NCBI GenBank assembly: GCA_040008015.1
Contig: JBDTTZ010000125.1
Location: 1-41,822, forward strand
From: Gemmatimonadota bacterium
GTDB lineage: Bacteria; Gemmatimonadota; Gemmatimonadetes; Gemmatimonadales; GWC2-71-9
Length of the DNA: 41,822 nt
Direction: 5' to 3'
Made by a program: the position numbers and the translations under genes. This document shows, in pieces, positions 12,284 to 28,156 of this stretch; the stretch's first letter is position 1; each line of letters begins with the position of its first letter. The notes below the pieces were generated by a model, which saw only the letters and a list, made by a program, of their open reading frames with translations, searched no databases and had not been told where the DNA came from.

Positions 12284-12634
12284 GTGCCGGGTGGCATCGA
12301 GTTTGTCTACGACAACTACAACGGTCTGGTGTTGGGCTACGGACCGACCGAACGGCCTTCGGAAGCGGTGCTTTCCCTGGCCCTGTTTCCCGACCACGTC
12401 ACCCTGTGCTTCCTATATGGCGCCACCCTGGCGGACCCCGGCAAACTCCTGAAAGGGAGCGGCAACCGGGTCCGCCACGTCCGGCTGAGCTCGCCGACGA
12501 CACTGGAAGAACCGGCCGTCCGCTCCCTGATCGGGCAGGCCATTGCGGCCGCGTCACCTCCCTTCCCCGCTGACGGGCCGCCGCGCACGGTGATCCGGGC
12601 GATCTCGCCCAAGCAACGGCCGCGACGAGCCTGA
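12284..12634 (+). CDS. DUF1801 (YdhG-like) domain protein, possibly lacking its proper start
   Basis: IEFVYDNYNGLVLGYGPTERPSEAVLSLALFPDHVTLCFLYGATLADPGKLLKGSGNRVRHVRL is typical of this DUF1801 subfamily. The listed start is GTG. Family-like sequence continues in frame upstream to about 12164 with no ATG, GTG or TTG. Confidence 0.7.
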   Translation: MPGGIEFVYDNYNGLVLGYGPTERPSEAVLSLALFPDHVTLCFLYGATLADPGKLLKGSGNRVRHVRLSSPTTLEEPAVRSLIGQAIAAASPPFPADGPPRTVIRAISPKQRPRRA

Positions 12635-12636
12635 AC

Positions 12637-13698
12637 GTGACCGACCTCCTGACTCGACGGCTCTACAACCAGCACATCGCCGGCTCTCCCCTGAAACAGC
12701 CGGAGGACGTCGTACGGTGGCTCGGGGCGGTACAGTCGCAGGACTACCTCGGGGCGAAATGGTCACTCGGACAGCGGCTGCGAAACGGTACCGACGCGAC
12801 AATAGACCAGGCGTTCAACGATGGCAGGATTCTCCGCATCCACATGCTGCGGCCGACCTGGCATTTTGTTTCACCGGAAGACATCCGCTGGATGCTGCAG
12901 CTGACCGCACCGCACGTCCATGCCCTCAACAAATACCCCTACCGCGTGAGCGGGCTGGATGCGCCCGTCCTGACCCGGACCAGCCGGCTCATCGAGCGAG
13001 CCCTCGAGGGCGGACACTCGAAGACGCGGAAGGAGCTGGCGGCGATCCTGGACAAGGACAAGGTCGGCGGAACTGGCCTGCGGATGGTGTGCATCATGAT
13101 GAACGCCGAGCTGGAGGGGGTGGTCTGCAGCGGGCCACTCAAAGGAAAGCAGCACACCTACGCGCTGCTGGAGGAACGGGTCCCGCCGGCTCGCGCCCGC
13201 ACGCGCGACGATGCGCTGGCTGAGCTGGCTCGCCGATTCTTCACCGGTCATGGACCGGCCACCGTCAGGCACTTCGCGTGGTGGTCGGGTTTGTCGATGA
13301 AAACGGCCAGGGCCGGACTGGAGATGGTGCAGCACCAGCTCTCCAGCGAAGCGATCAACAGCCATATCTTCTGGTCGGGCCCGGACTCCCGCCGGGTTCG
13401 CCCCGGCAGGGCCGCCTACCTGATTCCGGAATACGACGAATGCCTGACGGGATACCGCGATCTCGCGGTGCCGGATGCCGCGCGCGCCAGGGGACTCCGG
13501 CCCGCGGGGGACGGATCGGTACGCCCTATCATTTTTGGCGGAAAGCGAGTTGGAACCTGGCGACGAGTCATACTCAAGGGCAGCCTGACCGTCGAAGCCA
13601 ATCTGTTCGCGAAGCTGAGTGCCGCCGAATCCCGCGCTCTCGAGGCGACCGTTCGACGCTACAGAGAATTCCTCAACCTGCCGGCAACCCTGGCCTGA
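12637..13698 (+). CDS. Winged-helix DNA-binding domain protein of the AlkZ/YcaQ DNA glycosylase family
   Basis: 353 aa with a GTG start. The N-terminus LLTRRLYNQHIAG...DVVRWLGAVQSQDYLGAKWSL, plus RILRIHMLRPTWHFV and VPEYDECLTGY-like segments, are characteristic of the HTH_42 family. The candidate catalytic motif is Q-S-Q. Confidence 0.85.
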   Translation: MTDLLTRRLYNQHIAGSPLKQPEDVVRWLGAVQSQDYLGAKWSLGQRLRNGTDATIDQAFNDGRILRIHMLRPTWHFVSPEDIRWMLQLTAPHVHALNKYPYRVSGLDAPVLTRTSRLIERALEGGHSKTRKELAAILDKDKVGGTGLRMVCIMMNAELEGVVCSGPLKGKQHTYALLEERVPPARARTRDDALAELARRFFTGHGPATVRHFAWWSGLSMKTARAGLEMVQHQLSSEAINSHIFWSGPDSRRVRPGRAAYLIPEYDECLTGYRDLAVPDAARARGLRPAGDGSVRPIIFGGKRVGTWRRVILKGSLTVEANLFAKLSAAESRALEATVRRYREFLNLPATLA

Positions 13699-15743: not shown

Positions 15744-16922
15744 ATGTCCCACGCGCCCCACCAGGCGGCCACCAGCCCAGGCGAACTCCTGGCCCGCGCC
15801 CAGGCCATCGCAGCCAACATCGCCGCGAAGCAAGCACCCGAAGTCGACCGACACGCACGTTTCCCCCACGAAACCGTGGAGGCAGCGCGCGAGGCCGAGC
15901 TGTTGTCGGCGCTGGTGCCGGTGGAGCTCGGAGGGGCGGGCGCAAGCATGGGTGACCTTGCCGCCATGTGCGCGGCCCTGGCCCAGGGCTGCGGCTCGAG
16001 CGGCATGGTGCTCGCCATGCACCACATTCAGATCGCCTGCCTCGCGCGCCATGCCCGCTCGTCATCGTTCTTCGAAGCCTACCTCCGCGACGTAGCCGAA
16101 CGGCAGCTGCTCCTGGCCTCGATAACATCCGAGGTGGGAACCAGCGGCGACACCCGCTCCAGCATCTGCGCCATTGAGCGCGGCGACGGGCGATTCAGCC
16201 TGGTCAAGGACGCTACCACCGTTTCATACGGTGAGTACGCCGACGATCTGCTGGTGACCTGCCGGCGCGCCGCCGATTCTTCCCCGTCCGACCAGGTCCT
16301 GGTCCTCGTCCGCAAAGCCGACCTCTCGCTGGAGCGGACCGGCGAGTGGGACACCCTGGGGATGCGCGGCACCTGTAGCCCGGCCTACAAGCTGACGGCC
16401 TCCGGCCCCGAGTCGCAGATCGTTCCTGGCGCGTTCGCCGATTCGTCGGCGCAGTCGATGGTTCCCTATTCGCACATCCTGTGGAGCGCGGTCTGGCTGG
16501 GCATCGCCACCGACGCGATCGCCCGCGCATCGGCATATGTCCGGGCCGAGGCGCGCAAGAAGCCGGGCACGATCCCGGCGACGGCGACCCGGCTGGCCGA
16601 GGCCTCGGTGATGCTCCAGTCCATGCGGAACGACGTGACCGCCGCCGCCGCCGAGTTCGATGCCCTGGACGGCTGTCTCGAGCCGCTGTCGAGCATGAGC
16701 TGGGCGCTGCGGATGAACAATCTCAAGGTCGCCAGCTCGGAGGCGGCACCGCGGATCGTGCACCAGGCCCTCCAGATTCTCGGCATCATGGGATACAAGA
16801 ACGATTCGCCCCTCAGCGTCGGCCGGCAGTATCGCGACGTCCTCTCCGCGTCGCTCATGATCAGCAACGACCGGATCGCCTCGAAGAGCGCCTCCATGCT
16901 GCTCGTGCTCAAGGACGAGTAG
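15744..16922 (+). CDS. Acyl-CoA dehydrogenase-fold flavoprotein (non-canonical catalytic-base region)
   Basis: 392 aa with ACAD N-terminal, middle and C-terminal domain patterns (RFPHETVEAAREAELLSALVP.ELGG, TSEVGTSGD, GYKNDSPLSVGRQYRDV). Where MCAD-type enzymes have Y-E-G-T, this protein reads MISND. Confidence 0.9.
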   Translation: MSHAPHQAATSPGELLARAQAIAANIAAKQAPEVDRHARFPHETVEAAREAELLSALVPVELGGAGASMGDLAAMCAALAQGCGSSGMVLAMHHIQIACLARHARSSSFFEAYLRDVAERQLLLASITSEVGTSGDTRSSICAIERGDGRFSLVKDATTVSYGEYADDLLVTCRRAADSSPSDQVLVLVRKADLSLERTGEWDTLGMRGTCSPAYKLTASGPESQIVPGAFADSSAQSMVPYSHILWSAVWLGIATDAIARASAYVRAEARKKPGTIPATATRLAEASVMLQSMRNDVTAAAAEFDALDGCLEPLSSMSWALRMNNLKVASSEAAPRIVHQALQILGIMGYKNDSPLSVGRQYRDVLSASLMISNDRIASKSASMLLVLKDE

Positions 16923-17834
16923 ATGACCGCCCCCTCCGCCCCGCCGGTCTTCCACGATGAGCTGGTCGCCCACGGCCTGATTACGCCGGTGGGCGTGCTC
17001 GGCGCGTTCGGCCGCCGCCAGGTCTTCGAGGACGTGCTCGAGCGCCTCGACGCCCTGATTCTGCGGCTGGCAAAGGACGATGCGGTCGAGTCGATGACAT
17101 TTCCGCCGGTGATCGACCGGGCCATCATCGAGCGCACCGGGTACATGGATTCCTTTCCGAACCTGTGCGGCGTGGTGCACAGCTTCGTGGGACCCGAGCG
17201 CGATGCCCGGGCGATTTCCGAGCGGATCCAGAAGGCGGAGCCCTGGGGCGACATGCTGGCCATGACCGATGTCGTGCTGAACCCGGCCGCCTGCTACCCG
17301 CTGTATCCCACCTGCCGCGGCATCCTCCCCCCGGGCGGGCGCGAGGTCACCATGGCGGCCTGGGTCTACCGGCAGGAGCCGTCGGCGGAACCGACCCGGA
17401 TGCGATCCTTTCGGGTGCGGGAGTTCGTGCGGCTCGGCGCGGCGGAACACTGCGTTGCCTGGCGTGACCAGTGGCTGGAGCGCGGGCTCGCGATGCTCAC
17501 GTCGCTGGAGCTGCCGGCCCGGTCCGACGTCGCCGCCGATCCGTTCTTCGGCCGTGGCGGGAAGATCCTCGCCGCCGGCCAGATCGAGCAGCGGCTCAAA
17601 TTCGAGGTGCTGATCCCGGTCATCTCCGACGAGGCGCCGACGGCGTGCTGCTCGTTCAACTACCACCAGGACAAGTTCGGGAGTGCATTCGACATTCGAA
17701 CCGCCGACGGAGAGGTGGCGCATACCGCGTGTCTCGGTTTCGGCATGGAGCGGATCGTCATGGCGCTCTTCCGGACTCACGGCTTTGATCCGAAGCAGTG
17801 GCCCCGGGCAGTCCGCGAGAAGCTCTGGTCATGA
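16923..17834 (+). CDS. Amino acid--[carrier protein] ligase (truncated methanogen-type seryl-tRNA-synthetase homologue)
   Basis: At 303 aa it is a class-II aaRS catalytic core only. Motif 2 is MRSFRVREF and motif 3 is CLGFGMERIVMALF. Cys124, Glu167 and Cys270 sit in the contexts expected for the active-site Zn ligands. There is no tRNA-binding domain. It is adjacent to a carrier protein and a PPTase. Confidence 0.8.
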   Translation: MTAPSAPPVFHDELVAHGLITPVGVLGAFGRRQVFEDVLERLDALILRLAKDDAVESMTFPPVIDRAIIERTGYMDSFPNLCGVVHSFVGPERDARAISERIQKAEPWGDMLAMTDVVLNPAACYPLYPTCRGILPPGGREVTMAAWVYRQEPSAEPTRMRSFRVREFVRLGAAEHCVAWRDQWLERGLAMLTSLELPARSDVAADPFFGRGGKILAAGQIEQRLKFEVLIPVISDEAPTACCSFNYHQDKFGSAFDIRTADGEVAHTACLGFGMERIVMALFRTHGFDPKQWPRAVREKLWS

Positions 17835-18841
17835 ACCGGATCCAGGTGCTTCCCGGGTTCGAGGTCGCCGGCTACCGGCGGCATGAGCTGCACGCCGACG
17901 ACCGCGTCTGGGTGGAAAAGAACTGCTACGTCGATGTCTGCATCGAGCTGCTCCACGCGCTCGGCCTGGAGCCGCTCGCGCTGCTGGGCGCCTGCGCCGC
18001 GATCGACTTCGAGGGAGACAACTTCACGTTCTTCAAGCCCTCGCACGACGAGATGCGCCTCTTCTTCGGACTTGATGTGCAGGAGCTCAATGTCTGGCGC
18101 CCGCTCATCGAGCACGCGGCCGAGCACCTGGCCGCCGGCAAGCTCATCAGCACGGAAACGGACAGTTTCAATCTGCCGGACACCGAGGGAACCGATTACC
18201 AGCGGAACCACGTCAAGACCACGATCATTCTCGCCGACCTGGACGTCGAAGCCCGGCGGCTGGGGTATTTCCATAACGCCGGCTATTACACCCTCGACGG
18301 CCAGGACTTCGCCCGGCTCTTCCGCCTGGACCAGGCGCCTGATCCGGCCTTTCTCCCGCTGTTCGCCGAAGTCATCCGGGTAGACCGGCTGGTGCGGCGG
18401 ACTCCCGGTGCGCTGAAACGGCTGGCCCGCGAGCTCCTGGCCATCCACGTGGCACGCCGGCCGGCGAGCAATCCACTCGTCGCGTTTCAACACCGCTTCG
18501 AGCGGGATCTCCCGGAGATCCAGGGCCAGGGTCTCGGGTATTATCACGCGTGGGCCTTCGCCACGGTGCGCCAGGTCGGCGCCGCGTCCGAGCTGTTGTC
18601 GCTGCATCTCCGGTGGCTGGGCAGCCCGGAGGCCGGCGAGAGCCTGGCATCGGCGGCCGACGACTTCGAGCGCCTGAGTGCCGCCGCCAAGACGTTCATC
18701 CTGAAGGCGGCCCGCGCCGTCAACACCCGCCGGGCAGTGGATGCCTCGGCAATTTTCCTGGAGATGGCCCAGGCCTGGGAACGGGGAATGTCTCGGCTCG
18801 CCCTGGCGGTCGGATCAGAAATGTCGGAGCAGCCCGTATGA
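17831..18841 (+). CDS. DUF1839 family protein
   Basis: The start MNRIQVLPGF.. (ATG 17831) overlaps the upstream stop (ATGA). The sequence HELHADDRVWVEKNCYVDVCIELLHALGLEP..FEGDNFTFFKPS matches my recollection of DUF1839, a family usually found next to aa:CP ligases. Confidence 0.75.
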   Translation: MNRIQVLPGFEVAGYRRHELHADDRVWVEKNCYVDVCIELLHALGLEPLALLGACAAIDFEGDNFTFFKPSHDEMRLFFGLDVQELNVWRPLIEHAAEHLAAGKLISTETDSFNLPDTEGTDYQRNHVKTTIILADLDVEARRLGYFHNAGYYTLDGQDFARLFRLDQAPDPAFLPLFAEVIRVDRLVRRTPGALKRLARELLAIHVARRPASNPLVAFQHRFERDLPEIQGQGLGYYHAWAFATVRQVGAASELLSLHLRWLGSPEAGESLASAADDFERLSAAAKTFILKAARAVNTRRAVDASAIFLEMAQAWERGMSRLALAVGSEMSEQPV

Positions 18842-19242
18842 CCGCCGCCGCGCTCACAGTCGGGATCGACCTGGTCCAGGTGAGTCGGATCGCCGAGTCA
18901 TTGGACCGATTCGGAGACCGTTTTCTCAAGCGGATCTTCACCGAGGGAGAGATCGCCTACGCCCGGGCTGAGCCGGAGCAGACCGCCGAGCGGCTGGCCG
19001 CCCGCTTTGCCGCCAAAGAGGCGACGATCAAGGCCATGGGGCTGGCGGAGCAGCCGTTCAACTGGCGGGACATCGAGGTCCGGCGGACCAGCTCCGGAGC
19101 CTGTGAGATAGATCTCCACGGCTCCGTCGGGGCATTTGCATCATCCTCGGGCGCCGGCCCGCTTATCGTAAGCTTGAGCCACGAGGGTGACTACGCTACG
19201 GCAGTGGTCATCTCCTGTGGACCACGAATCCAGGACACATGA
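18838..19242 (+). CDS. acpS: Holo-[acyl-carrier-protein] synthase (AcpS-type 4'-phosphopantetheinyl transferase)
   Basis: 134 aa. GIDLVQVSRI, FAAKEATIKA and SLSHEGDYATAVV are canonical AcpS motifs. There is an ATGA overlap with both neighbours. Confidence 0.85.
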   Translation: MTAAALTVGIDLVQVSRIAESLDRFGDRFLKRIFTEGEIAYARAEPEQTAERLAARFAAKEATIKAMGLAEQPFNWRDIEVRRTSSGACEIDLHGSVGAFASSSGAGPLIVSLSHEGDYATAVVISCGPRIQDT

Positions 19243-19502
19243 GCCCGCAAGAGACGACCCGGATCACCGAGACGGTTCGCCGGATCCTCAAAGAACACGG
19301 CCGCTTTTCGCGTGACGTCGAGAGCCTGGCTGCCGATGCCGACCTGTACCAGGCCGGGATGACGTCGCACGCGAGCGTGAACATCATGCTGGCGCTGGAA
19401 GGGGAGTTTGACGTCGAGTTCCCCGACCACATGCTGACCCGGGCCGTGTTCTCCAGCATCAATTCGATGCGCACCGCGGTACAGGAGCTCCTCCCGCAAT
19501 GA
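19239..19502 (+). CDS. Dedicated acyl/aminoacyl carrier protein
   Basis: 87 aa. The ACP helix-II region is LYQAGMTSHASVNIMLALEGEF, with the phosphopantetheine-attachment Ser in GMTSH. Confidence 0.85.
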   Translation: MSPQETTRITETVRRILKEHGRFSRDVESLAADADLYQAGMTSHASVNIMLALEGEFDVEFPDHMLTRAVFSSINSMRTAVQELLPQ

Positions 19503-22039
19503 GTGGGGCCGGGCGTGGACGCGTCCGCTCCATCTCCGGCTACCAGGTCGAACGGCTGTCCGAGGGATGGGGGGTGGCGTCATGCCCTCCCGATGCGATT
19601 GACGGGCCGGCGGCGCTGGCGGCCGCCTCGCTCGAATGGCTTCCGGCACTGGTGCCTTCCACCGCCGCCTCGGCGCTGCGCGCCGCCGGTCGCTGGTCCC
19701 TCGAAGATCCTCCCCGAAAATTCGACGCCGAAGACTGGTGGTACCGGACCTCGTTCCGCGCCGATCCGGCAGAGCCGGGCGAACAGATCTGGCTCTGCTT
19801 CGACGGACTGGCGACGATATCCGACGTCTGGCTCAATGGAGAGCCCCTGCTCTGCTCGGCGGGAATGTTCACCGCGCGCGAGCACCGCGTGGACCAGCAG
19901 CTCCGAGCCGAGAACCATCTCGCGATCCGCTTTCGCTCTCTTGACTCGCTGCTTGCGGCCCGCCGGCCCCGGCCCCGCTGGCGGGCGCCGATGGTAGAGC
20001 ACCAGCAGCTGCGCTGGCACCGAACCACCCTCCTCGGCCGGACACCCGGGTGGTCACCGCCCGCGGCGGCGGTCGGACCCTGGCGCCCGGTGCGCCTGGA
20101 GCGCCGGCGGGGTGTCATCATCCAAGACGTGCGGCTGCTGGCGCATGGCAGCGGCGCACTGGATGTCTCCTGCCGGGTAGCGACCCTCAGCGGTGAAACG
20201 GTGTCCGGGGCGGAGATCATCGTCGAGCGCGATGGCCGCACGTATGGCACGGCTCTCAACCTGTCAGGCTCCGGCGAATTCAGCGCAACACTCCAGGTGC
20301 CCGACGCAGAGCTGTGGTGGCCCCATACCCACGGGGACCCGGCCCTCTACTCGGCACGCCTCCGCCTGGGACGCGCCCGGGAGATCATCGAGGTTGACCT
20401 GGGCGCCGTCGGCTTTCGCTCCGTCTCGCTCGAGACCGCCGGTGATGATTTCGAGATCCGGGTCAACAGTGTCCCGATCTTCTGCCGCGGTGCCTGCTGG
20501 ACACCGCTGGACCCGGTCTCGCTCGGAGAGTCTCCCGGGACACTGGACCAGGCCATGACCCAGGTGGTAGCCGCCGGCATGAACATGCTGCGGGTAGGCG
20601 GCACGATGGTCTACCAAAGCGACGATTTCCTCGATGCCTGCGATAGCCGCGGCATTCTCCTCTGGCAGGACTTCATGTTCGCGAATATGGACTACCCGGA
20701 GGATGACAAGTCGTTCATAGCCGCGGTAGACATCGAGATTCGGCAGGAGCTGGGCCGATTGCAGGGCCGTCCAAGCGTGGCCGTGCTGTGCGGAAACAGC
20801 GAAGGGGGTCAGCAGGCCGCGATGTGGGGAGCGACGCGGGATCGGTGGACGCCGGCCCTCTTTCACCGGCTCATTCCCGACCTCGTCGCGGCGTTCTGTT
20901 CCGGTGTTCCCTATGCCCCGTCATCGGCATTTGGCGGCGCGTTTCCGCACCAGGCTAGCACGGGAGCGACATCATACTACGGCGTGGGAGCGTATCGCAG
21001 ACCACTCGAGGACGCCCGCCGGGCCGAAGTGCGCTTCGCCTCCGAATGCCTCGCCTTCGCCAATGTCCCCACGGCGCAATCCCTGGCGGCGTCGCCGGTG
21101 CTTCGCGGCGCCCGGGTTCATCATTCCGCCTGGAAGGGCCGCACGCCGCGCGACCCGGGCGCCGGCTGGGACTTCGACGATGTGCGGGACCATTACCTCG
21201 CCCTGCTCTTCGGGGTGGACCCGCTCGAGCTCCGCGCCTCGGATCACGAGCGCTACCTCTCGTTGAGCCGAGTGGTAACCGGTGAGGTCATGGCGGCAGT
21301 CTTTGGCGAATGGAGGCGGCGGCGATCCACCACCCGCGGTGGCCTGGTCTGGTTCCTTCGCGATCTCTGGGACAGTGCAGGATGGGGAGTAATCGATGCT
21401 TCCGGGAAACCAAAAGCGGCATGGCACTATCTCCGGCGGGCGCTGGCGCCGGTCGCGCTCTTTCTTTCCGACGAAGGGGGCAACGGAATCGGCGTTCACC
21501 TGACGAACGACACTCCGCTGATGGTGGAAGGGGACCTCGAGATTGCGCTCTTTCGCGGGGCGGTCCCGGTCACCCGCGGGCACCAGGCTGTATCGGTCGC
21601 GCCCCACGACTCACTGGAGCGCAATGCCGCCGACTGGTTCGACAGCCTCCACGACCTGAGCTATGCCTACCGCTTTGGTCCCCCGGCCTATGACCTCATG
21701 GCGGCCACCGTGCGTGACGGGTCGGGCAGCGTGATTGCGCGGGCCTGTCACTTTATCCAGGGCCTGCCTCGCGTCATGGTGCCGGAGATCGGGCTGACGG
21801 CCGAGGCGCGACGAAAAGCCGATGGGTACGAGCTAGTGGTGCGCACCCGTGATTTCGCCCAGTCAGTGACCGTCGAGCTGGAGGGGTACACGAGCGAAGA
21901 CAACTTCTTCCACCTTGCCCCGGGCGAGGAGCGTGTCCTCGAGATCCGGCCCGATGGCTCGGGCGCTTCGGCGCGCGGAACCCTCAAACCGCTCAATTCG
22001 GAGATGGCCACACCGGTGTCGTTCCCAGGCAACCCGTGA
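19499..22039 (+). CDS. Glycoside hydrolase family 2 protein (beta-mannosidase-like), no signal peptide
   Basis: 846 aa. It has DWWYRTSF and LCFDGLATISDVWLNGEPL. The acid/base context is LCGNSEGG and the nucleophile context is VRFASECLAFANVP, so both catalytic Glu residues appear retained. The start overlaps the carrier-protein stop (ATGA). Confidence 0.85.
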   Translation: MSGAGRGRVRSISGYQVERLSEGWGVASCPPDAIDGPAALAAASLEWLPALVPSTAASALRAAGRWSLEDPPRKFDAEDWWYRTSFRADPAEPGEQIWLCFDGLATISDVWLNGEPLLCSAGMFTAREHRVDQQLRAENHLAIRFRSLDSLLAARRPRPRWRAPMVEHQQLRWHRTTLLGRTPGWSPPAAAVGPWRPVRLERRRGVIIQDVRLLAHGSGALDVSCRVATLSGETVSGAEIIVERDGRTYGTALNLSGSGEFSATLQVPDAELWWPHTHGDPALYSARLRLGRAREIIEVDLGAVGFRSVSLETAGDDFEIRVNSVPIFCRGACWTPLDPVSLGESPGTLDQAMTQVVAAGMNMLRVGGTMVYQSDDFLDACDSRGILLWQDFMFANMDYPEDDKSFIAAVDIEIRQELGRLQGRPSVAVLCGNSEGGQQAAMWGATRDRWTPALFHRLIPDLVAAFCSGVPYAPSSAFGGAFPHQASTGATSYYGVGAYRRPLEDARRAEVRFASECLAFANVPTAQSLAASPVLRGARVHHSAWKGRTPRDPGAGWDFDDVRDHYLALLFGVDPLELRASDHERYLSLSRVVTGEVMAAVFGEWRRRRSTTRGGLVWFLRDLWDSAGWGVIDASGKPKAAWHYLRRALAPVALFLSDEGGNGIGVHLTNDTPLMVEGDLEIALFRGAVPVTRGHQAVSVAPHDSLERNAADWFDSLHDLSYAYRFGPPAYDLMAATVRDGSGSVIARACHFIQGLPRVMVPEIGLTAEARRKADGYELVVRTRDFAQSVTVELEGYTSEDNFFHLAPGEERVLEIRPDGSGASARGTLKPLNSEMATPVSFPGNP

Positions 22040-22758
22040 CTTCATTAACCACGCGGGAGCAGACCATCACGCTGGCCGGGCTGCGCACCATCGTCGTGGC
22101 GGCCGCGGAACCGGAGCTGGTCGTCATCATGTTGCATGGCTATGCCATGACGCCGGAAGATCTCGCTCCCTTCGCCCATTCCATGAAGATTCCAGCGGTC
22201 TTCCTGGTCCCCGAAGGCCCGCTGGCGGCCTGGCCGGCCGGACGCGCGTGGTGGGAGATGGATCATGAGCGCCGGGCCCTGGCGCTGGAGCGAGGACCGC
22301 GCGATCTCCACGCCGAGCACCCTGCCGGCGCGCCCGCGGCACGGGCGGGACTCCTGGCGTTCCTGGCGGAGAGCGGGACGCGATGGAAGGGTTGCTCGCG
22401 CGCGATCGTGGGCTTTTCGCAGGGTGGGATGCTGGCTTGTGATACCCTGCTGAGGGAGCGGCCTGACATCGCGCGGCTGGCGCTGTTGTCCTCGTCCCGC
22501 ATCGCGGCCGATGAATGGCTGCCGCTGGTGCCCCGGATGCGAGGGCTCCCGGTCCTGGTCAGCCATGGCCGCGCGGATGACGATCTCGCCTTCGGCGCCG
22601 GCTGTGCGCTGCGTGACCTGCTTCAATCCGGTGGGGCAGAGATGACATGGGTGCCCCACGATCACGGGCACGAGATTCCGCTGGTGGTGTGGCGGGCGCT
22701 GAGAAAATTCCTGTCTAGCGGAAAGGCAGAATCCGCACGGCACCGATCGCCGCGCTGA
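22036..22758 (+). CDS. Alpha/beta hydrolase of the phospholipase/carboxylesterase (acyl-protein thioesterase-like) family
   Basis: 240 aa with a GTG start overlapping the GH2 stop (GTGA). The triad contexts are VIMLHGY, the nucleophile elbow GFSQGG, SHGRADDDL and HDHGHEIP. Confidence 0.8.
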   Translation: MTSLTTREQTITLAGLRTIVVAAAEPELVVIMLHGYAMTPEDLAPFAHSMKIPAVFLVPEGPLAAWPAGRAWWEMDHERRALALERGPRDLHAEHPAGAPAARAGLLAFLAESGTRWKGCSRAIVGFSQGGMLACDTLLRERPDIARLALLSSSRIAADEWLPLVPRMRGLPVLVSHGRADDDLAFGAGCALRDLLQSGGAEMTWVPHDHGHEIPLVVWRALRKFLSSGKAESARHRSPR

Positions 22759-23764
22759 GCGGAGCCAGCACCCGCCTGGTGAGCCGCCAGCCATCGCGGG
22801 ACACCCGGCGCATCGCGTGCAGGCTGGTAAGAAGAGTGAAGAATCTTCGCCGGAGGGTCCGCCGCTTCGGCGCGACCCGGACCGGCTGGCCGGCCGCGGC
22901 ATAGATATGGGTTCCCTCGTCGATCATTGTCTTGCCGGTATCAACCACGCTTTGCAGGGTCGCCAGCTGCAGCTCGGTGTTCCCCACCCGTTCCCGCGCC
23001 ACGTCGCCCTGTGCGATCATCCGGTCGTAGAGTACCCCGAAATTGCGCCGCCGCATCGCTTCAGCCGCAAAGGGAAACACCGTGATAGTCTTTCGCTGGC
23101 CGCTGCGATCGATGATCTCGGTGGCCATGGGCTCAGAGGTGTACACCGGGACCGGCGCGGTGTCCTGGAAGCGGTGCTCGAGACAGTGGGTGAACGTCAG
23201 CACTTCCAGGCCGACGTCGAAGAACAACGCCTTGGCGCCAAGGGACAGCATTTTCTCGTAAGGAGAACCAGGTCCGCACGAATGAGCCAGGTCCTCGTGA
23301 CCGGAGATGACCCACTCGGCCCGGGGACCCCAGGCCAGCAGCGGATGCAGCGGGTTGGCGCTCCGGATCACGCCGGCCCGGCGGCGAAAGGACTCCGACA
23401 TCACGCCCATCATCGACGGCGTACGCCGGACGTCGAAAACGCTTTTCGATTCCAGGTAGGCCTGGGCCGAGCTCCGGTAGGGCATCGACACCATGAAGAG
23501 GTGACCCCGGGGGCCGATGATGCTGAGAATGCGGTCGATGACGTGCGGGGCGTCTCCGCTGAATCCATTCATCGAGCTGAACGACGCCTGCATGAGGATC
23601 GAATCGCCCTCGCCAATTCCCAGGCGCCGCAACGCCGCGTCCAGGTCGGCCGGCGAGTAGGCCAGCGTCGCCCGAATCACCCGGTAACGCAGGAGTCGGA
23701 TCGCCTCCTTGAGGCGGGCTCGGAGCGAGGCCGGTAGCCACGCGAACAGCGCGCGCGTGGTCAC
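22715..23764 (-). CDS. AAC(3)-family (aminoglycoside N3-acetyltransferase-like) acetyltransferase with a C-terminal extension
   Basis: 349 aa. LRRLGIGEGDSILMQASFSSMNGFSGDAPHVIDRILSIIGPRGHLFMVSMPY and ...SCGPGSPYEKM.. follow the Antibiotic_NAT family pattern. Its 3' end overlaps the convergent hydrolase gene by 44 nt. Confidence 0.8.
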   Translation of the reverse strand: MTTRALFAWLPASLRARLKEAIRLLRYRVIRATLAYSPADLDAALRRLGIGEGDSILMQASFSSMNGFSGDAPHVIDRILSIIGPRGHLFMVSMPYRSSAQAYLESKSVFDVRRTPSMMGVMSESFRRRAGVIRSANPLHPLLAWGPRAEWVISGHEDLAHSCGPGSPYEKMLSLGAKALFFDVGLEVLTFTHCLEHRFQDTAPVPVYTSEPMATEIIDRSGQRKTITVFPFAAEAMRRRNFGVLYDRMIAQGDVARERVGNTELQLATLQSVVDTGKTMIDEGTHIYAAAGQPVRVAPKRRTLRRRFFTLLTSLHAMRRVSRDGWRLTRRVLAPLSAAIGAVRILPFR

Positions 23765-24818: not shown

Positions 24819-24931
24819 AGCGACTCCGTGAGGTGTGACTGGAAACCTTCTCCCCGAGAGCCTAGGCTTAGGGCGTCACTCACCTGTCCGATAGCGTCAA
24901 TTCGCAGGTGACACCCATAGCCCGGGTCAGA

Positions 24932-25654
24932 ATGAATCCGCCCCAGCCGTTAGAGACCCAACATGTCCCGGTCGCCATCGTAACCGCCGCCAGCCGAGGC
25001 ATGGGCGCCGCTTGTGCCCGGGAGCTGGGTGCCCGGGGCTACCGGCTTGCTCTCCTCGCCCGCTCCGACGACGTGGATGCACTGGCGATGGAACTGGGGG
25101 CCGTGGCGATCAGAGGCAGTGTGACCGAGCCGGCGGACCTGGACCGGATCGTGGATACCGCGCTCCAACATTACGGCCGGATTGACGTCGTGGTCAATAA
25201 CACCGGCCACGCCGCCAAGGGCCGGCTCCTCGACATCACCGACGCCGACTGGCACGCCGGTCTCGACATGTTGTTGCTGAACGTGATCCGCATGGCCCGC
25301 CTGGTCACTCCTGCCATGCTCCAGCAGAAGACCGGTTCTCTGGTCAACATATCCAGTTTTGCCGCGGAGGAGCCGGGACTCAAGCATCCGGTCTCCGCCG
25401 TGCTCCGGATCGGGTTGGAGAATTTCGCCCGGCTCTATAGCCAGCAGTATGCCGGGCACGGCCTCCGCATGAATAACGTGCTGCCCGGCTGGATCGATAC
25501 CTATCCCGTCACCGACGACGTGCTGGCCGCGATTCCGGCGGGACGGCCCGGCAGCGCCGAAGAAGTGGCGAGGGTGGTCGCCTTTCTCGCCTCGCCTGAC
25601 GCGAGTTACATCACCGGTCAGAGCCTGTTGGTCGATGGCGGGTTGGTGCGGTGA
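24932..25654 (+). CDS. SDR-family oxidoreductase lacking the canonical YxxxK motif
   Basis: The Rossmann motif is VTAASRGMGAA. NNTG, NISS and the PG motif are present. No Y-x3-K occurs between NISS and PGW. The start is uncertain: ATG 24932 or GTG 24908. Confidence 0.85.
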   Translation: MNPPQPLETQHVPVAIVTAASRGMGAACARELGARGYRLALLARSDDVDALAMELGAVAIRGSVTEPADLDRIVDTALQHYGRIDVVVNNTGHAAKGRLLDITDADWHAGLDMLLLNVIRMARLVTPAMLQQKTGSLVNISSFAAEEPGLKHPVSAVLRIGLENFARLYSQQYAGHGLRMNNVLPGWIDTYPVTDDVLAAIPAGRPGSAEEVARVVAFLASPDASYITGQSLLVDGGLVR

Positions 25655-25685
25655 GAATGGTGACCGAGTGCTTCCTGGAGAACCC

Positions 25686-27047
25686 ATGAAAGACCTGCTG
25701 ACGGCTACCGCCGAGCGCGCGAATCGTTACCTGGAGGACCTCCAGACTCGCAGCGTCGCGCCATCGAGGGAAGCGATTGCCCGCCTCGCCACTCTGAGCG
25801 CTCCGCTGCAACCAGAGCCCCGTGCTCCCGAAACCGTACTCCAGGAGCTGGACGAGATCGGCTCTCCCGCGACCACCGGCATTGCGGGTCCCCGCTATTT
25901 CGGCTTCGTCATCGGTGGATCCTTGCCGGTCGCGCTGGCCGCCAACTGGATGGCGTCTGCCTGGGACCAGAACTGCGGGCTGTACAACATCACGCCCGGC
26001 GCGGCATTCCTCGAAAAGGTGGCACTCGATTGGCTGCTCGACATACTCGGCCTGCCCCGGGGATGCGCCGGCGGGTTCGTCACCGGCACCACGGTCGCCC
26101 ACCTGACGGCGCTCGCCGCGGCGCGGCATGCCGTTCTCGCCCGGGTCGGCTGGAACGTCGAGGCCGATGGGTTATTCGGTGCTCCACCCATCACGGTCGT
26201 CGTCGGCGCCGAAGCCCATGCCACGCTGTTCAAGTCACTCGGCGTGCTGGGCCTCGGACGTAGCCGAGTGGTCAAAGTCCCGGTGGACGGACAGGGGAGA
26301 ATGCGGCTGGACGCGCTCCCTCCGCTCACCGGACCAACCATTGTCTGCACCCAGGCGGGGAACGTGAACACCGGCGCGTGCGATCCCACCCGTGAAATCG
26401 TCGAGTGGGCGCATGCCGCCGCCGCCTGGGTCCACGTCGACGGCGCCTTCGGGCTCTGGGCCCGGGTGGCGCCTTCTCGCGCATACCTGGTCGAGGGCAT
26501 CGAAACGGCCGATTCCTGGGCCACCGATGGCCACAAATGGTTGAACGTTCCCTATGACAGCGGGATCGCGTTCGTGCGGGACCAGGACGCGCTTCGAGCC
26601 GCCATGGCCATCACCGCCGAGTACCTGCCAACCGAGAGTGAAAATCGGAACCCGTCAGATTTTGTCCCCGAGCTGTCTCGGCGTGCCCGCGGTGTGGATA
26701 TCTGGGCGGCCCTCCGCTCGCTGGGCCGCTCCGGCGTGACCGAGCTGGTCGAGCGAAACTGCCGCCAGGCGCGGAGGTTCGCCGAAGGACTCAGCACCGC
26801 CGGCTACCAGGTGCTGAACGACGTGGTGCTGAACCAGGTGCTGGTCGCCTTTGGTGACGCAGTGACGACCAATCGCGTCATCTCGGAGATTCAGCTGGAG
26901 GGAACCTGCTGGTGCGGCGGGACCGTGTGGCAAGGCCGGACCGCCATGCGAATCAGCGTGTCCAGTTGGGCAACCACCGACGCCGATGTCGAGCAGAGCA
27001 TCGCGGCGATGATACGGGTCGCTACCGCCGTGGGCAGAGGGGAATAG
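25686..27047 (+). CDS. Group II pyridoxal-dependent (amino acid) decarboxylase family protein
   Basis: The start MKDLL is preceded by ggagaa. The PLP-lysine context is ATDGHKWLNVPYDSG. GFVTGTTVAHLTALAAAR and HVDGAFG are typical of the family. Confidence 0.85.
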   Translation: MKDLLTATAERANRYLEDLQTRSVAPSREAIARLATLSAPLQPEPRAPETVLQELDEIGSPATTGIAGPRYFGFVIGGSLPVALAANWMASAWDQNCGLYNITPGAAFLEKVALDWLLDILGLPRGCAGGFVTGTTVAHLTALAAARHAVLARVGWNVEADGLFGAPPITVVVGAEAHATLFKSLGVLGLGRSRVVKVPVDGQGRMRLDALPPLTGPTIVCTQAGNVNTGACDPTREIVEWAHAAAAWVHVDGAFGLWARVAPSRAYLVEGIETADSWATDGHKWLNVPYDSGIAFVRDQDALRAAMAITAEYLPTESENRNPSDFVPELSRRARGVDIWAALRSLGRSGVTELVERNCRQARRFAEGLSTAGYQVLNDVVLNQVLVAFGDAVTTNRVISEIQLEGTCWCGGTVWQGRTAMRISVSSWATTDADVEQSIAAMIRVATAVGRGE

Positions 27048-27083
27048 AACACTCTCCATGCCGTCCGCTGCTGCCGGGTCGCG

Positions 27084-27530
27084 ATGACTCGCGCCACCCT
27101 CCTCGCTTTTCTACGCGGCCATCGTCTGGCGGTGGAAACCTCGGTAGCCTCCGGCGGCGGCGTGCAGGCCGCCGTCGTCGGCATCGCGGTCATCGACAAC
27201 TTTGAGCTCGTCTTCGATACGCTGGAAACGACCCGGAAAGCGCGGAACATCGCGCTGGATCCCCGGGTCGCTTTCGTTATTGGTGGAACCGTTGACGGCG
27301 AGGCGGTGACGGTCCAGTACGAAGGAGTTGCGGACCGGCCGAGTGGCGAGGAGATGAAGACCCTGCAGCAACGATACCTGGAAGTGTTTCCGGATGGCGC
27401 CGAGCGGCTGAGCTGGCCGGGTTTAATCTACGTCAGGGTGAAGCCACGCTGGTTGCGCTATAGTGATTACGGAGGGGAGCCGCCGATCATCCTGGAGTGG
27501 AGCGAGAGGGATCTTGAGGCGTTGGTCTAG
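27084..27530 (+). CDS. Pyridoxamine 5'-phosphate oxidase-like FMN-binding split-barrel protein
   Basis: 148 aa. The FDTLETTRKARNIALDPRVAFVIG...VQYEG pattern is characteristic of PNPOx-like proteins. Confidence 0.8.
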   Translation: MTRATLLAFLRGHRLAVETSVASGGGVQAAVVGIAVIDNFELVFDTLETTRKARNIALDPRVAFVIGGTVDGEAVTVQYEGVADRPSGEEMKTLQQRYLEVFPDGAERLSWPGLIYVRVKPRWLRYSDYGGEPPIILEWSERDLEALV

Positions 27531-27572
27531 GGAGTGCGGGGGGCGGGTACTTTTGCGTGGTGGGCTTTCAAT

Positions 27573-27603
27573 CGCGAAGACGCGAAAGGGCGAAAGCGCG
27601 AAG
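27573..27603. repeat. Left inverted repeat of the GxxExxY cassette (tandem CGCGAA[A/G]-type units)
   Basis: The reverse complement of cgcgaagacgcgaaagggcgaaagcgcgaag matches 28033-28063 at 28 of 31 positions. Confidence 0.8.
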
Positions 27604-27630
27604 TGGTTCTGACTGCTTGAGACAACATGA

Positions 27631-28023
27631 CTAGACAGTTATGTCGGCAAATCGATTTACCAGTCGGCGCACTTCGAGTCTTGGCGTATTGAAGTTTATG
27701 AGCAGCCCAACGGTCAACTTGGTGGCTTTGAGATACGATCGTAGCTGCGAAAAATGAACCTCGCTCAGAGCCTTTACGGCTTTGAGTTCGACGATCAGTT
27801 CGTTCCTGACCACAAGATCAACCTGATGGGTGCATACCTCTATCCCCTGGTAGGTGACCACGATACGGCTCTCGCTAAGGAATTCCAGACCTGCTCGTGA
27901 TAGGGCGATCCGCATCGCATTGCGATACGCCTTCTCCAGGAACCCCGGGCCAAGCTCGCGATGCACATCCAGAGCGCACCCAATCACCTCATTGGACAGT
28001 CTATCGAACTGAAGTTGTTTCAT
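27631..28023 (-). CDS. GxxExxY protein (PD-(D/E)XK nuclease superfamily)
   Basis: The start is at MKQLQFDRL (ATG 28023). The name-giving motif is G-F-L-E-K-A-Y in ELGPGFLEKAYRNAM. The PD-(D/E)XK-like core is DLVVRNELIVELKAV. The gene is visibly AT-richer than its neighbours. Confidence 0.85.
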   Translation of the reverse strand: MKQLQFDRLSNEVIGCALDVHRELGPGFLEKAYRNAMRIALSRAGLEFLSESRIVVTYQGIEVCTHQVDLVVRNELIVELKAVKALSEVHFSQLRSYLKATKLTVGLLINFNTPRLEVRRLVNRFADITV

Positions 28024-28032
28024 CGCCAGACC

Positions 28033-28063
28033 CTTCGCGCTTTCGCCCCTTCGCGCTTTCGCG
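28033..28063. repeat. Right inverted repeat of the GxxExxY cassette
   Basis: cttcgcgctttcgccccttcgcgctttcgcg lies immediately upstream of the cassette gene's ATG and is the partner of 27573-27603. Confidence 0.8.
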
Positions 28064-28156
28064 CTTGAAAACTCACCCAGCTCAAGGGCCCAAGGTACGC
28101 ACTCCGCACCCAACCTGGGTAACCAAACCCACGCACTCCCGTACCGGAAACCCGCC

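Follow-up and report, generated by a model that had tools for sequence, protein, structure and literature searches.

A Gemmatimonadota operon with an amino acid:[carrier protein] ligase, its carrier protein and a predicted carrier-protein-dependent transacylase

Gene content, bounds and conservation of the operon

Seven plus-strand genes at positions 15744–22758 of a 41,822-bp contig from a Gemmatimonadota metagenome-assembled genome (MAG) encode, in this order, a flavoprotein of acyl-CoA dehydrogenase (ACAD) fold, an amino acid:[carrier protein] ligase (aa:CP ligase), a DUF1839 protein, an AcpS-type 4'-phosphopantetheinyl transferase (PPTase), a carrier protein, a glycoside hydrolase of family 2 (GH2) and a small alpha/beta-hydrolase (genes 1 to 7; Table 1). 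The whole contig was analysed and is called the window below. The seven genes form a real operon of this Gemmatimonadota bacterium. The reading to which we incline, if only slightly, is that they constitute a free-standing carrier-protein-templated pathway that would activate, modify and transfer a small amino acid. The initial annotation, made from the letters alone, had proposed the same seven spacerless genes with their junctions and families; all of its coordinates and motifs proved exact, the seven in-frame open reading frames (ORFs) were recovered, and all seven family identities hold in Pfam and NCBIfam profile searches.

Table 1. Features of the window, with the predicted identity of each and, for the partners of the ligase, their occurrence among 44 well-flanked related loci.
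Feature	Position	Strand	Length (aa)	Predicted identity and profile matches	Well-flanked loci
Gene 1	15744..16922	+	392	ACAD-fold flavoprotein; Pfam Acyl-CoA_dh_N + Acyl-CoA_dh_1	44/44, always directly upstream of the ligase
Gene 2	16923..17834	+	303	Amino acid:[carrier protein] ligase; NF005479	
Gene 3	17831..18841	+	336	DUF1839 protein; PF08893, 1e-95	43/44
Gene 4	18838..19242	+	134	AcpS-type 4'-phosphopantetheinyl transferase; PF01648, TIGR00556	24/44, accessory
Gene 5	19239..19502	+	87	Dedicated aminoacyl carrier protein; NF005480	43/44
Gene 6	19499..22039	+	846	GH2 beta-mannosidase-type glycosidase; Glyco_hydro_2_N2, Glyco_hydro_2, Ig_mannosidase	42/44
Gene 7	22036..22758	+	240	Small alpha/beta-hydrolase; PF02230 (Abhydrolase_2)	20/44, accessory, variable positions
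DUF1801 gene, then AlkZ-like gene	12284..13698	+		DNA glycosylase (AlkZ-like): PF06224, 1e-59	
AAC(3)-like gene	22715..23764	-		Aminoglycoside 3-N-acetyltransferase-like; PF02522 3e-41, NF033082 78 bits (cutoff 270)	
SDR gene	24908..25654	+		Short-chain dehydrogenase/reductase	
PLP decarboxylase gene	25635..27047			Group II pyridoxal-phosphate-dependent decarboxylase	
PNPOx-like gene	27084..27530			PNPOx-like	
Lowest-G+C stretch	27001..28000			G+C 0.589	
Nuclease gene	27631..28113	-		PD-(D/E)XK nuclease family; PF13366 3e-37	

Genes 1 and 2 abut in TAGATG at 16920, the next four junctions are ATGA overlaps at 17831, 18838, 19239 and 19499, and the last one is GTGA at 22036, so that the spacings across the run are 0, -4, -4, -4, -4 and -4. 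Overlapping junctions are common in this genome, the spacing being zero or less at 7/24 other same-strand junctions of the window, and a single junction therefore means little. The six consecutive junctions of this kind are the longest such run in the window, and their chance, if junctions are independent of each other, is about 6e-4 (~0.29^6). Translated from 17831, gene 3 yields the 336-aa protein of the NCBI record (P0121; 100% identity, 100% coverage), and with the start at 18838 the PPTase models cover residues 6–125 of gene 4. On its upstream side the operon is set off from an unrelated esterase gene by a gap of 220 bp; its downstream limit is a convergent AAC(3)-like gene that reaches into its last 44 bp. 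The flanking genes were called by hand from ORFs scored by third-codon-position G+C (GC3). A scan for consensus promoters and terminators was uninformative, with zero promoter-like sites and fewer terminator-like sites than in shuffled sequences, and an Rfam scan of the whole window and the 5' gap returned no riboswitch, in particular none for glycine, which might have been a clue to the substrate.

Conservation was assessed in the 80 loci whose ligases are most similar to that of the window (53–80% identity, one genome per GTDB species), which represent Gemmatimonadota, Myxococcota, three proteobacterial classes (Alpha-, Beta- and Gammaproteobacteria) and a single actinomycete; the cultured bearers of the cassette among them include Undibacterium spp., Nevskia soli DSM 19509, Citreicoccus inhibens M34 and Azospirillum sp. 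BE72. The seven proteins of the window were mapped onto these loci by tblastn, and partners were counted in the 44 well-flanked loci with at least 6.5 kb on either side of the ligase. The conserved unit consists of five genes, encoding the ACAD-fold protein, the ligase, DUF1839, the carrier and GH2. Within it, the order ACAD–ligase–DUF1839 is invariant, and the (PPTase)–carrier–GH2 block shifts as a unit, lying downstream, upstream or divergent; the exact gene order of the window is found in 8/44 loci. Conversely, when DUF1839 was used as the query on metagenome contigs, the ligase lay directly upstream in all 45 of the 45 loci with at least 1 kb of upstream sequence. The possibility that the partners are random neighbours is rejected by this reverse count together with the presence of four partners in 42–44 of the 44 loci. 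The partner set drawn up in the initial annotation thus stands for its ACAD-fold, DUF1839, carrier and GH2 members as a core, whereas the PPTase and the small hydrolase turned out to be accessory.

All other ORFs of the 80 loci were clustered for further partners. The most frequent one is a tandem alpha/beta-hydrolase of ~600 aa, which adjoins the cassette in 47/80 loci, mostly right after GH2 (e.g. L050:14559-16415; also L004 and L007). The halves of this protein are similar to the exosortase-A-associated hydrolases 2 and 1 (TIGR03101, 1e-28; TIGR03100, 2e-40; both below the cutoffs), a hint that the cassette is akin to the uncharacterised sub-cluster of ligase, ACP and hydrolase within XrtA exopolysaccharide loci. 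Membrane proteins of the Acyl_transf_3 type were seen in 14/80 loci, a priming glycosyltransferase of the XrtA/PEP-CTERM type (TIGR03013, 560 bits) in 8/80, GT4 glycosyltransferases in 5/80 and GNAT proteins in 4/80. At the cassette edge of 7–8 of the 80 loci, all gammaproteobacterial, lies a flavin reductase of the HpaC/C1 type that is extended at its C-terminus (NF045919, 206 bits against a cutoff of 340; L005:4005-5000, L007:3628-4674, L017:265-1251, L030:3991-4998 and others), suggesting that the ACAD-fold protein may use reduced flavin in those loci. Among 12 long well-flanked loci from soil metagenomes, the tandem hydrolase and the gene-7-type hydrolase are each present in 11 and Acyl_transf_3 in nine. 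The whole window holds no homologue of the tandem hydrolase, Acyl_transf_3, the flavin reductase, the priming glycosyltransferase or GNAT, which makes the Gemmatimonadota operon a compact and reduced form of the cassette. One further arrangement was seen at L070:10001-16729 (an actinomycete MAG), where two ligases, 61% and 41% identical to that of the window, occur in the order ligase–carrier–ACAD–ligase–DUF1839–GH2.

Predicted functions of the encoded proteins

The ligase scores 407.6 bits on the NCBIfam equivalog NF005479 (amino acid--[ACP] ligase; PRK07080; cutoff 357) and only 68.6 and 53.6 bits on models of seryl-tRNA synthetase (SerRS), the cutoffs of which are 611 and 490. Residues 11–300 align with the Bll0957 structures PDB 4h2w and 3mey (E 5e-81 to 2e-79), the identity to Bll0957 being only ~44%, and residues 43–301 align only to residues 230–509 of the 527-aa type-2 SerRS 3w3s. 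Because the match covers the C-terminal catalytic half of SerRS alone, the tRNA-binding domain is absent, and the predicted product of gene 2 is the catalytic core of a class II aminoacyl-tRNA synthetase (aaRS) of the methanogen-SerRS type without that domain. All 81/81 family sequences have Cys124, Glu152 and Cys270, which align with their counterparts in Bll0957; we take them to be ligands of the active-site zinc, as in Bll0957 and methanogen SerRS. More than 7,500 homologues of the ligase were found, and both the ligase and the DUF1839 protein already bear names in NCBI records. That the ligase might be an ordinary tRNA-charging SerRS paralogue among chance neighbours would accord with its homology to methanogen-type SerRS and with the label 'seryl-tRNA synthetase' given to its relatives by JGI pipelines; the missing tRNA-binding domain, the two profile scores (407.6 bits against 68.6, with a SerRS cutoff of 611) and the co-occurrence of the partners in 42–44 of 44 loci across phyla make this extremely improbable.

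The carrier encoded by gene 5 reaches 105 bits on NF005480 (cutoff 72) and matches, at E 1e-16, both the 'Aminoacyl carrier protein' chain of 4h2w (complexes 4h2w-4h2y) and Atu2571 (2jq4). Its AGMTSHASV aligns with AGLSSFASV of the solved carrier, which places Ser43, invariant in 70/70 sequences, at the phosphopantetheine attachment serine; a weak similarity to DltC was also recorded (NF003464, 9e-5). The PPTase consists of a single ACPS domain of about 130 aa (PF01648, 1e-19 and 71 bits; TIGR00556, 96.9 bits with a cutoff of 45; TIGR00516, 73.3 bits with a cutoff of 59.8). The equivalog scores and the matches to Bll0957 and Atu2571 thus bear out the central idea of the initial annotation, an aaRS-like ligase without a tRNA domain that has a carrier and a PPTase of its own. 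They support the view that the operon would activate a small amino acid onto its own carrier, with a specificity predicted by homology only. The biochemically and structurally characterised Bll0957 and Atu2573 systems reportedly use Gly or Ala; the ligases Bll0957, Bll6282 and Atu2573 and the carriers Bsr0959 and Atu2571 are those of Mocibob et al. (2010, 2013). The 2010 description is said to have presented aa:CP ligases as connecting ribosomal with non-ribosomal peptide chemistry. It had been remarked in the initial annotation that the pathway and its product were never established; a 2022 review still calls the biological role of aa:CP ligases unknown, and our literature search returned no paper solving the function of the aa:CP ligase/DUF1839 cassette.

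The ACAD fold is present in the gene 1 flavoprotein, which aligns over its full length with SCAD and BCAD structures. The profile of its family scores 88 bits on short-chain ACADs (SCAD/BCAD), 83 on KijD3, 82 on the 'ACAD type 2' protein (5gj7) and 80 on DnmZ, and also matches DszC; the NCBIfam matches, to DszC, SfnB, HsaA, PigA and RedW-type models, are weak and all far below the cutoffs. A literature search for PDB 5GJ7 and 5Z8T found no paper. In the HMMER alignment, the family segment '...SAALMIGNDRI' pairs with 'ITQIYEGTNQI' of a true ACAD, so that the position of the Y-E-G glutamate is occupied by Ile/Val373, hydrophobic in 74/74 family members. The IVD-type base position falls on Ser243 by our own mapping of IVD onto the HMMER alignment, and the adjoining His244 is invariant. 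Both canonical ACAD glutamates are thus missing, and the protein was therefore filed as an ACAD-fold flavoprotein and not as an acyl-CoA dehydrogenase. It is a candidate tailoring enzyme for the aminoacyl-S-carrier. We put about even confidence in an O2-dependent oxidation, e.g. of the alpha-amino group or at C-alpha, because both dehydrogenase bases are absent, N-oxygenases are equally similar and flavin reductases flank some relatives; a classical alpha,beta-dehydrogenation appears somewhat less probable, and a non-canonical dehydrogenase or oxidase is quite possible. A link to the aminomalonyl/hydroxymalonyl-ACP pathways (ZmaG-J, FkbH-K) was also considered and dismissed: a 3-hydroxyacyl-dehydrogenase is missing from the partners of the cassette, and the listed PDB matches (E up to 1e-8) do not include FkbI.

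For the DUF1839 protein, a structure was predicted with AlphaFold2 (AF2) from a 41-sequence alignment (pLDDT 87.5, pTM 0.88). The model has a mixed alpha/beta part over residues 1–185 and a C-terminal helical bundle over residues 192–332. Foldseek searches of the PDB gave 17 matches at E <=1e-3, all of them AziU2/U3, CtaG or CcbD (E 4e-8 to 5e-4, TM 0.52–0.64), and the next match had E 0.29; the CcbD matches include CcbD bound to the peptidyl carrier protein (PCP) domain of CcbZ. Cys32 is invariant in 65/65 sequences from several phyla and is the first residue of the helix 32–43 of the model; for comparison, the nucleophile of CtaG is Cys11, and a C19S variant of CcbD is named in PDB titles. 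Trp27, Glu29, Asn31, Tyr33, Asp35, His127, Lys129, His148 and Glu180 are likewise invariant in these sequences, and Asp138 is kept in 64/65. More than 3,000 homologues of DUF1839 were found, and in an exhaustive search of representatives the best 150 matches were all close DUF1839 members. From the known asbABCDEF order we take DUF6005, mentioned next, to be AsbE. DUF1839 has independently been classed as papain-like and remotely homologous to DUF6005, whose gene is flanked in petrobactin clusters by an AsbF-like gene on one side and AsbD on the other (Ozhelvaci & Steczkiewicz 2023, PMC10318531). The papain-like ligase CtaG depends on a PCP and follows a ping-pong mechanism with an acyl-Cys intermediate; AsbE and BtrH are among its fold homologues and transfer the acyl groups of carrier proteins to acceptors with a free amine (PMC12865890). 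CcbD/LmbD take proline tethered to a carrier onto an enzyme Cys and then hand it to an amino sugar, at the amino group (PMC12945683). Because its fold neighbours CtaG and CcbD move acyl groups off carriers, DUF1839 is likely a carrier-protein-dependent transacylase, as predicted from the model, and would be the off-loading enzyme rather than the gene 7 hydrolase.

The initial annotation had cast gene 7 as a candidate release enzyme. Its product matches the carboxylesterases 3cn7, 5dwd, 1auo and 4f21 in the PDB, and Ser128 (GFSQG), Asp181 and His212 are invariant in 27/27 sequences; it appears to be a semi-conserved accessory esterase or thioesterase of the carboxylesterase/phospholipase family. 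If an alpha/beta-hydrolase (gene 7 here, the tandem hydrolase elsewhere) were to release the amino acid by thioester hydrolysis, the product would be a free modified amino acid, and DUF1839 and GH2 would have other roles, such as editing or processing. The intact Ser-Asp-His triad of gene 7 would suit this role, its family includes homologues of acyl-protein thioesterases, and hydrolases of some kind accompany most clusters. However, gene 7 is found in 20/44 loci at a variable position, whereas DUF1839 is found in 43/44, fixed beside the ligase, and combines an off-loading transacylase fold with an invariant Cys; moreover, the strictly linked GH2 would be left unexplained. We regard a free amino acid as an unlikely product, and DUF1839, with its fold matching CtaG and CcbD, as the likelier off-loader.

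The GH2 protein matches 5n6u at E 2e-60 and BtMan2A 2je8 at E 2e-53. Glu435 (GNSE) aligns with the Glu of CGNNE in BtMan2A and Glu516 (SEC) with that of SEFG, and they are kept in 54/57 and 57/57 family members, respectively; they are presumably the acid/base and the nucleophile. In 55/57 sequences the residue before the acid/base is Ser (Ser434) instead of Asn, giving G-N-S-E in place of the N-N-E/N-E of beta-mannosidases (clan GH-A). The replaced Asn normally contacts the sugar 2-OH, and because of this exchange the substrate may differ from a plain beta-mannoside, e.g. in carrying another C2 substituent. By eye, no signal-like sequence is present at the N-terminus. GH2 is thus predicted to be cytoplasmic and catalytically intact, a core partner that travels with the carrier gene. 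With three of the seven proteins belonging to hydrolase superfamilies with intact catalytic residues, and with a cytoplasmic, beta-mannosidase-like GH2, the operon could also serve catabolism or salvage: an aminoacylated glycoside taken up from soil would be broken down by GH2, the esterase and DUF1839, as a papain-like amidase, and the part set free would be oxidised by the flavoprotein. This is improbable, since degradation would give no obvious task to a ligase driven by ATP, a carrier of its own and a PPTase, neither transporter nor sugar-catabolic genes accompany the cassette in a conserved manner, and the fold relatives of DUF1839 are synthetic transacylases.

A possible aminoacyl transfer pathway

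In the pathway that we favour, the PPTase would convert the carrier to its holo form at Ser43, as its family membership suggests, and the ligase would use ATP to thioesterify a small amino acid to the phosphopantetheine arm, with Gly or Ala expected by analogy; for this loading step we rely on the close homology to the characterised Bll0957 and Atu2573 systems. The flavoprotein may then oxidatively tailor the tethered aminoacyl group. For DUF1839, its fold, conserved residues and strict gene linkage point to a ping-pong transfer like those of CtaG, CcbD/LmbD, AsbE and BtrH, in which the acyl group would pass from the carrier to Cys32 and on to an acceptor nucleophile. Gene 7 would be an accessory esterase/thioesterase for editing or deprotection and not the main release step. 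Condensation, ANL adenylation and thioesterase domains, which are typical domains of non-ribosomal peptide synthetases (NRPS), were absent from all seven proteins in the Pfam searches, and the pathway is therefore NRPS-independent.

The acceptor could well contain a sugar, though this is less firmly indicated than the preceding steps. The suggestion comes from the linkage of an intact GH2 to the carrier gene and from the relatives, which add Acyl_transf_3, exosortase-type hydrolases and, in some cases, priming or other glycosyl transferases. A more specific version can be offered tentatively: DUF1839 would be a CcbD-like transacylase, the long-missing off-loader of aa:CP ligase systems, and would put a Gly/Ala-derived unit, oxidised on the carrier by the flavoprotein as an ACAD-fold oxygenase, on an amino sugar or glycan, and the unusual N-S-E acid/base motif would suit GH2 to the sugar so modified. 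If true, soil bacteria of the Gemmatimonadota, Myxococcota and Proteobacteria, and some actinomycetes, would share a widespread and hitherto unrecognised route of aminoacyl decoration of glycoconjugates.

On the other hand, the same chemistry could serve a small diffusible acceptor (polyamine, aminoglycoside-like or siderophore-like), the operon then being a compact natural-product cluster in which GH2 would serve to activate a prodrug, protect the producer or supply a precursor, and would not act on a cell-surface glycan. All of the characterised fold relatives (CtaG, CcbD/LmbD, AsbE and BtrH) act in small-molecule biosynthesis, and the operon stands alone in the window, without polysaccharide genes. 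Nevertheless, relatives often have Acyl_transf_3, exosortase-type hydrolases, the TIGR03013 priming glycosyltransferase or GT4 beside the cassette, and across the 80 loci no transporter, scaffold-building enzyme or resistance gene is conserved with it. We give this variant a minor but real share of our confidence.

Several points weigh against the pathway of activation, tailoring and transfer to a sugar-containing acceptor. First, that one transcript spans all seven genes is our inference, judged from the junctions only, and the co-occurrence counts cover the loci nearest this ligase and so describe its subfamily rather than all aa:CP ligases. Second, the link of DUF1839 to CtaG/CcbD is at the level of the fold only (TM 0.52–0.64, 9–18% identity): a Pfam scan at E up to 10 returned DUF1839 alone, with no BtrH_N (PF14399) or DUF6005 (PF19468), and a DUF1839 profile run against PDB chains gave no relevant match, CtaG and CcbD included. 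In addition, the best structural match, AziU2/U3, is not an acyltransferase, and the DUF1839 site has been reported as a non-canonical C-(T/S)-H instead of Cys-His-Asp/Glu (PMC10318531). Third, the profile scores place the flavoprotein no closer to oxygenases than to true ACADs, and the window holds no flavin reductase homologue, as is also the case for most related loci. Finally, both the part assigned to GH2 and the nature of the acceptor are conjectural: there are no polysaccharide genes near the operon in the window, where the flanks are unrelated housekeeping genes, and the tandem hydrolase (47/80) and Acyl_transf_3 (14/80) of many relatives are absent from it, so that the operon falls short of the 'full set of parts' claimed for it in the initial annotation.

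Some of the neighbouring genes were considered as parts of the system and rejected, namely the upstream esterase, the PLP decarboxylase, the SDR and the AAC(3)-like gene. None of them matches an exosortase-associated family, and only the AAC(3)-like gene, which shares 44 bp with the 3' end of gene 7, recurs: the two closest Gemmatimonadaceae loci (L001 and L002) also have a homologue downstream of the cassette, and no other lineage does. The SDR gene overlaps the decarboxylase gene, likewise on the plus strand, by 20 bp, and the PNPOx-like gene comes next; the best match of the decarboxylase is a diaminobutyrate decarboxylase model, far below its cutoff. These three genes may form a separate small operon, which is not conserved with the cassette. 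Farther downstream, the PD-(D/E)XK nuclease gene (low GC3, 0.61) lies in the stretch of lowest G+C of the window and may have been acquired recently. On the other side of the operon, the DUF1801 gene is followed 2 bp later by the AlkZ-like gene.

Comparison with known systems

The ligase family, the carrier, their structures and the neighbourhood are already known, and the operon is an ordinary instance of a cassette that is very common in soil bacteria. Its ligase is like Bll0957 and Bll6282 of Bradyrhizobium and Atu2573 of Agrobacterium, which act with the carriers Bsr0959 and Atu2571, in belonging to the same family by equivalog scores, in its truncated class II core and in its Cys/Glu/Cys residues; structures of systems of the Bll0957/Atu2571 type include PDB 3mey, 3mf1, 3pzc, 4h2s-4h2y and 2jq4. 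Unlike the Bll0957 system, the operon of the window belongs to a member of the Gemmatimonadota and has the PPTase, carrier, GH2 and hydrolase genes downstream of DUF1839.

The DUF1839 protein shares a papain-like N-domain and a helical C-domain with CtaG (closthioamide; PDB 9quz), CcbD/LmbD (lincosamides; PDB 7yn2 for CcbD), AsbE (petrobactin) and BtrH (butirosin). As in the CtaG/CcbD class, a Cys stands at the start of the first long helix, and the gene lies beside those of an adenylating enzyme and a stand-alone carrier. However, there is no detectable sequence similarity, the site is reported as C-(T/S)-H, and the loading enzyme of the window is an aaRS homologue instead of an ANL adenylase or ATP-grasp enzyme. 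The flavoprotein has the same fold as KijD3, DnmZ and ORF36 (aminosugar N-oxygenases), DszC, and PigA and RedW (prolyl-carrier dehydrogenases); unlike in the KijD3/DnmZ/PigA group, its substrate is presumably a carrier-bound amino acid.

A further resemblance is to DltABCD (teichoic acid D-alanylation), in which a stand-alone ligase and a small dedicated carrier bring Ala to a non-peptide acceptor, an envelope glycoconjugate. AlmEFG, which adds glycine to Vibrio lipid A, follows a similar ligase–carrier logic. Nevertheless, the ligase of the window is a class II aaRS homologue and not an ANL enzyme, no homologue of MBOAT (DltB), DltD or AlmG is present, and the flavoprotein, DUF1839 and GH2 are added, so that the resemblance to Dlt and AlmEFG is best read as an analogy and not as membership.

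The closest precedent is a neighbourhood of GH2, DUF1839, aa:ACP ligase, ACAD and ACP genes in proteobacteria, for which fatty-acid/phospholipid or glycan processing was proposed (Ozhelvaci & Steczkiewicz 2023, PMC10318531). Of the uncharacterised NRPS-independent pathway announced in the initial annotation, the absence of NRPS domains thus stands, but its novelty was overstated, with this neighbourhood published in 2023 and NCBI names in existence. By itself, the locus leaves standing the question of the role of aa:CP ligases, being one of thousands of such cassettes. What goes beyond the published neighbourhood is the proposed link to carrier off-loading, the examples from Gemmatimonadota and Myxococcota, and the tandem hydrolase, Acyl_transf_3 and flavin reductase partners. 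The analysis puts numbers on the five-gene core, catalogues the optional partners, assigns DUF1839 by its predicted structure to the carrier-protein transacylase class and brings out the missing base of the flavoprotein and the N-S-E motif of GH2. DUF1839 could thereby be given a concrete job, in which it would detach the carrier-bound acyl group by a ping-pong reaction through a Cys, and the compact Gemmatimonadota version, with its own PPTase and without a membrane component, is a convenient minimal set for reconstitution.

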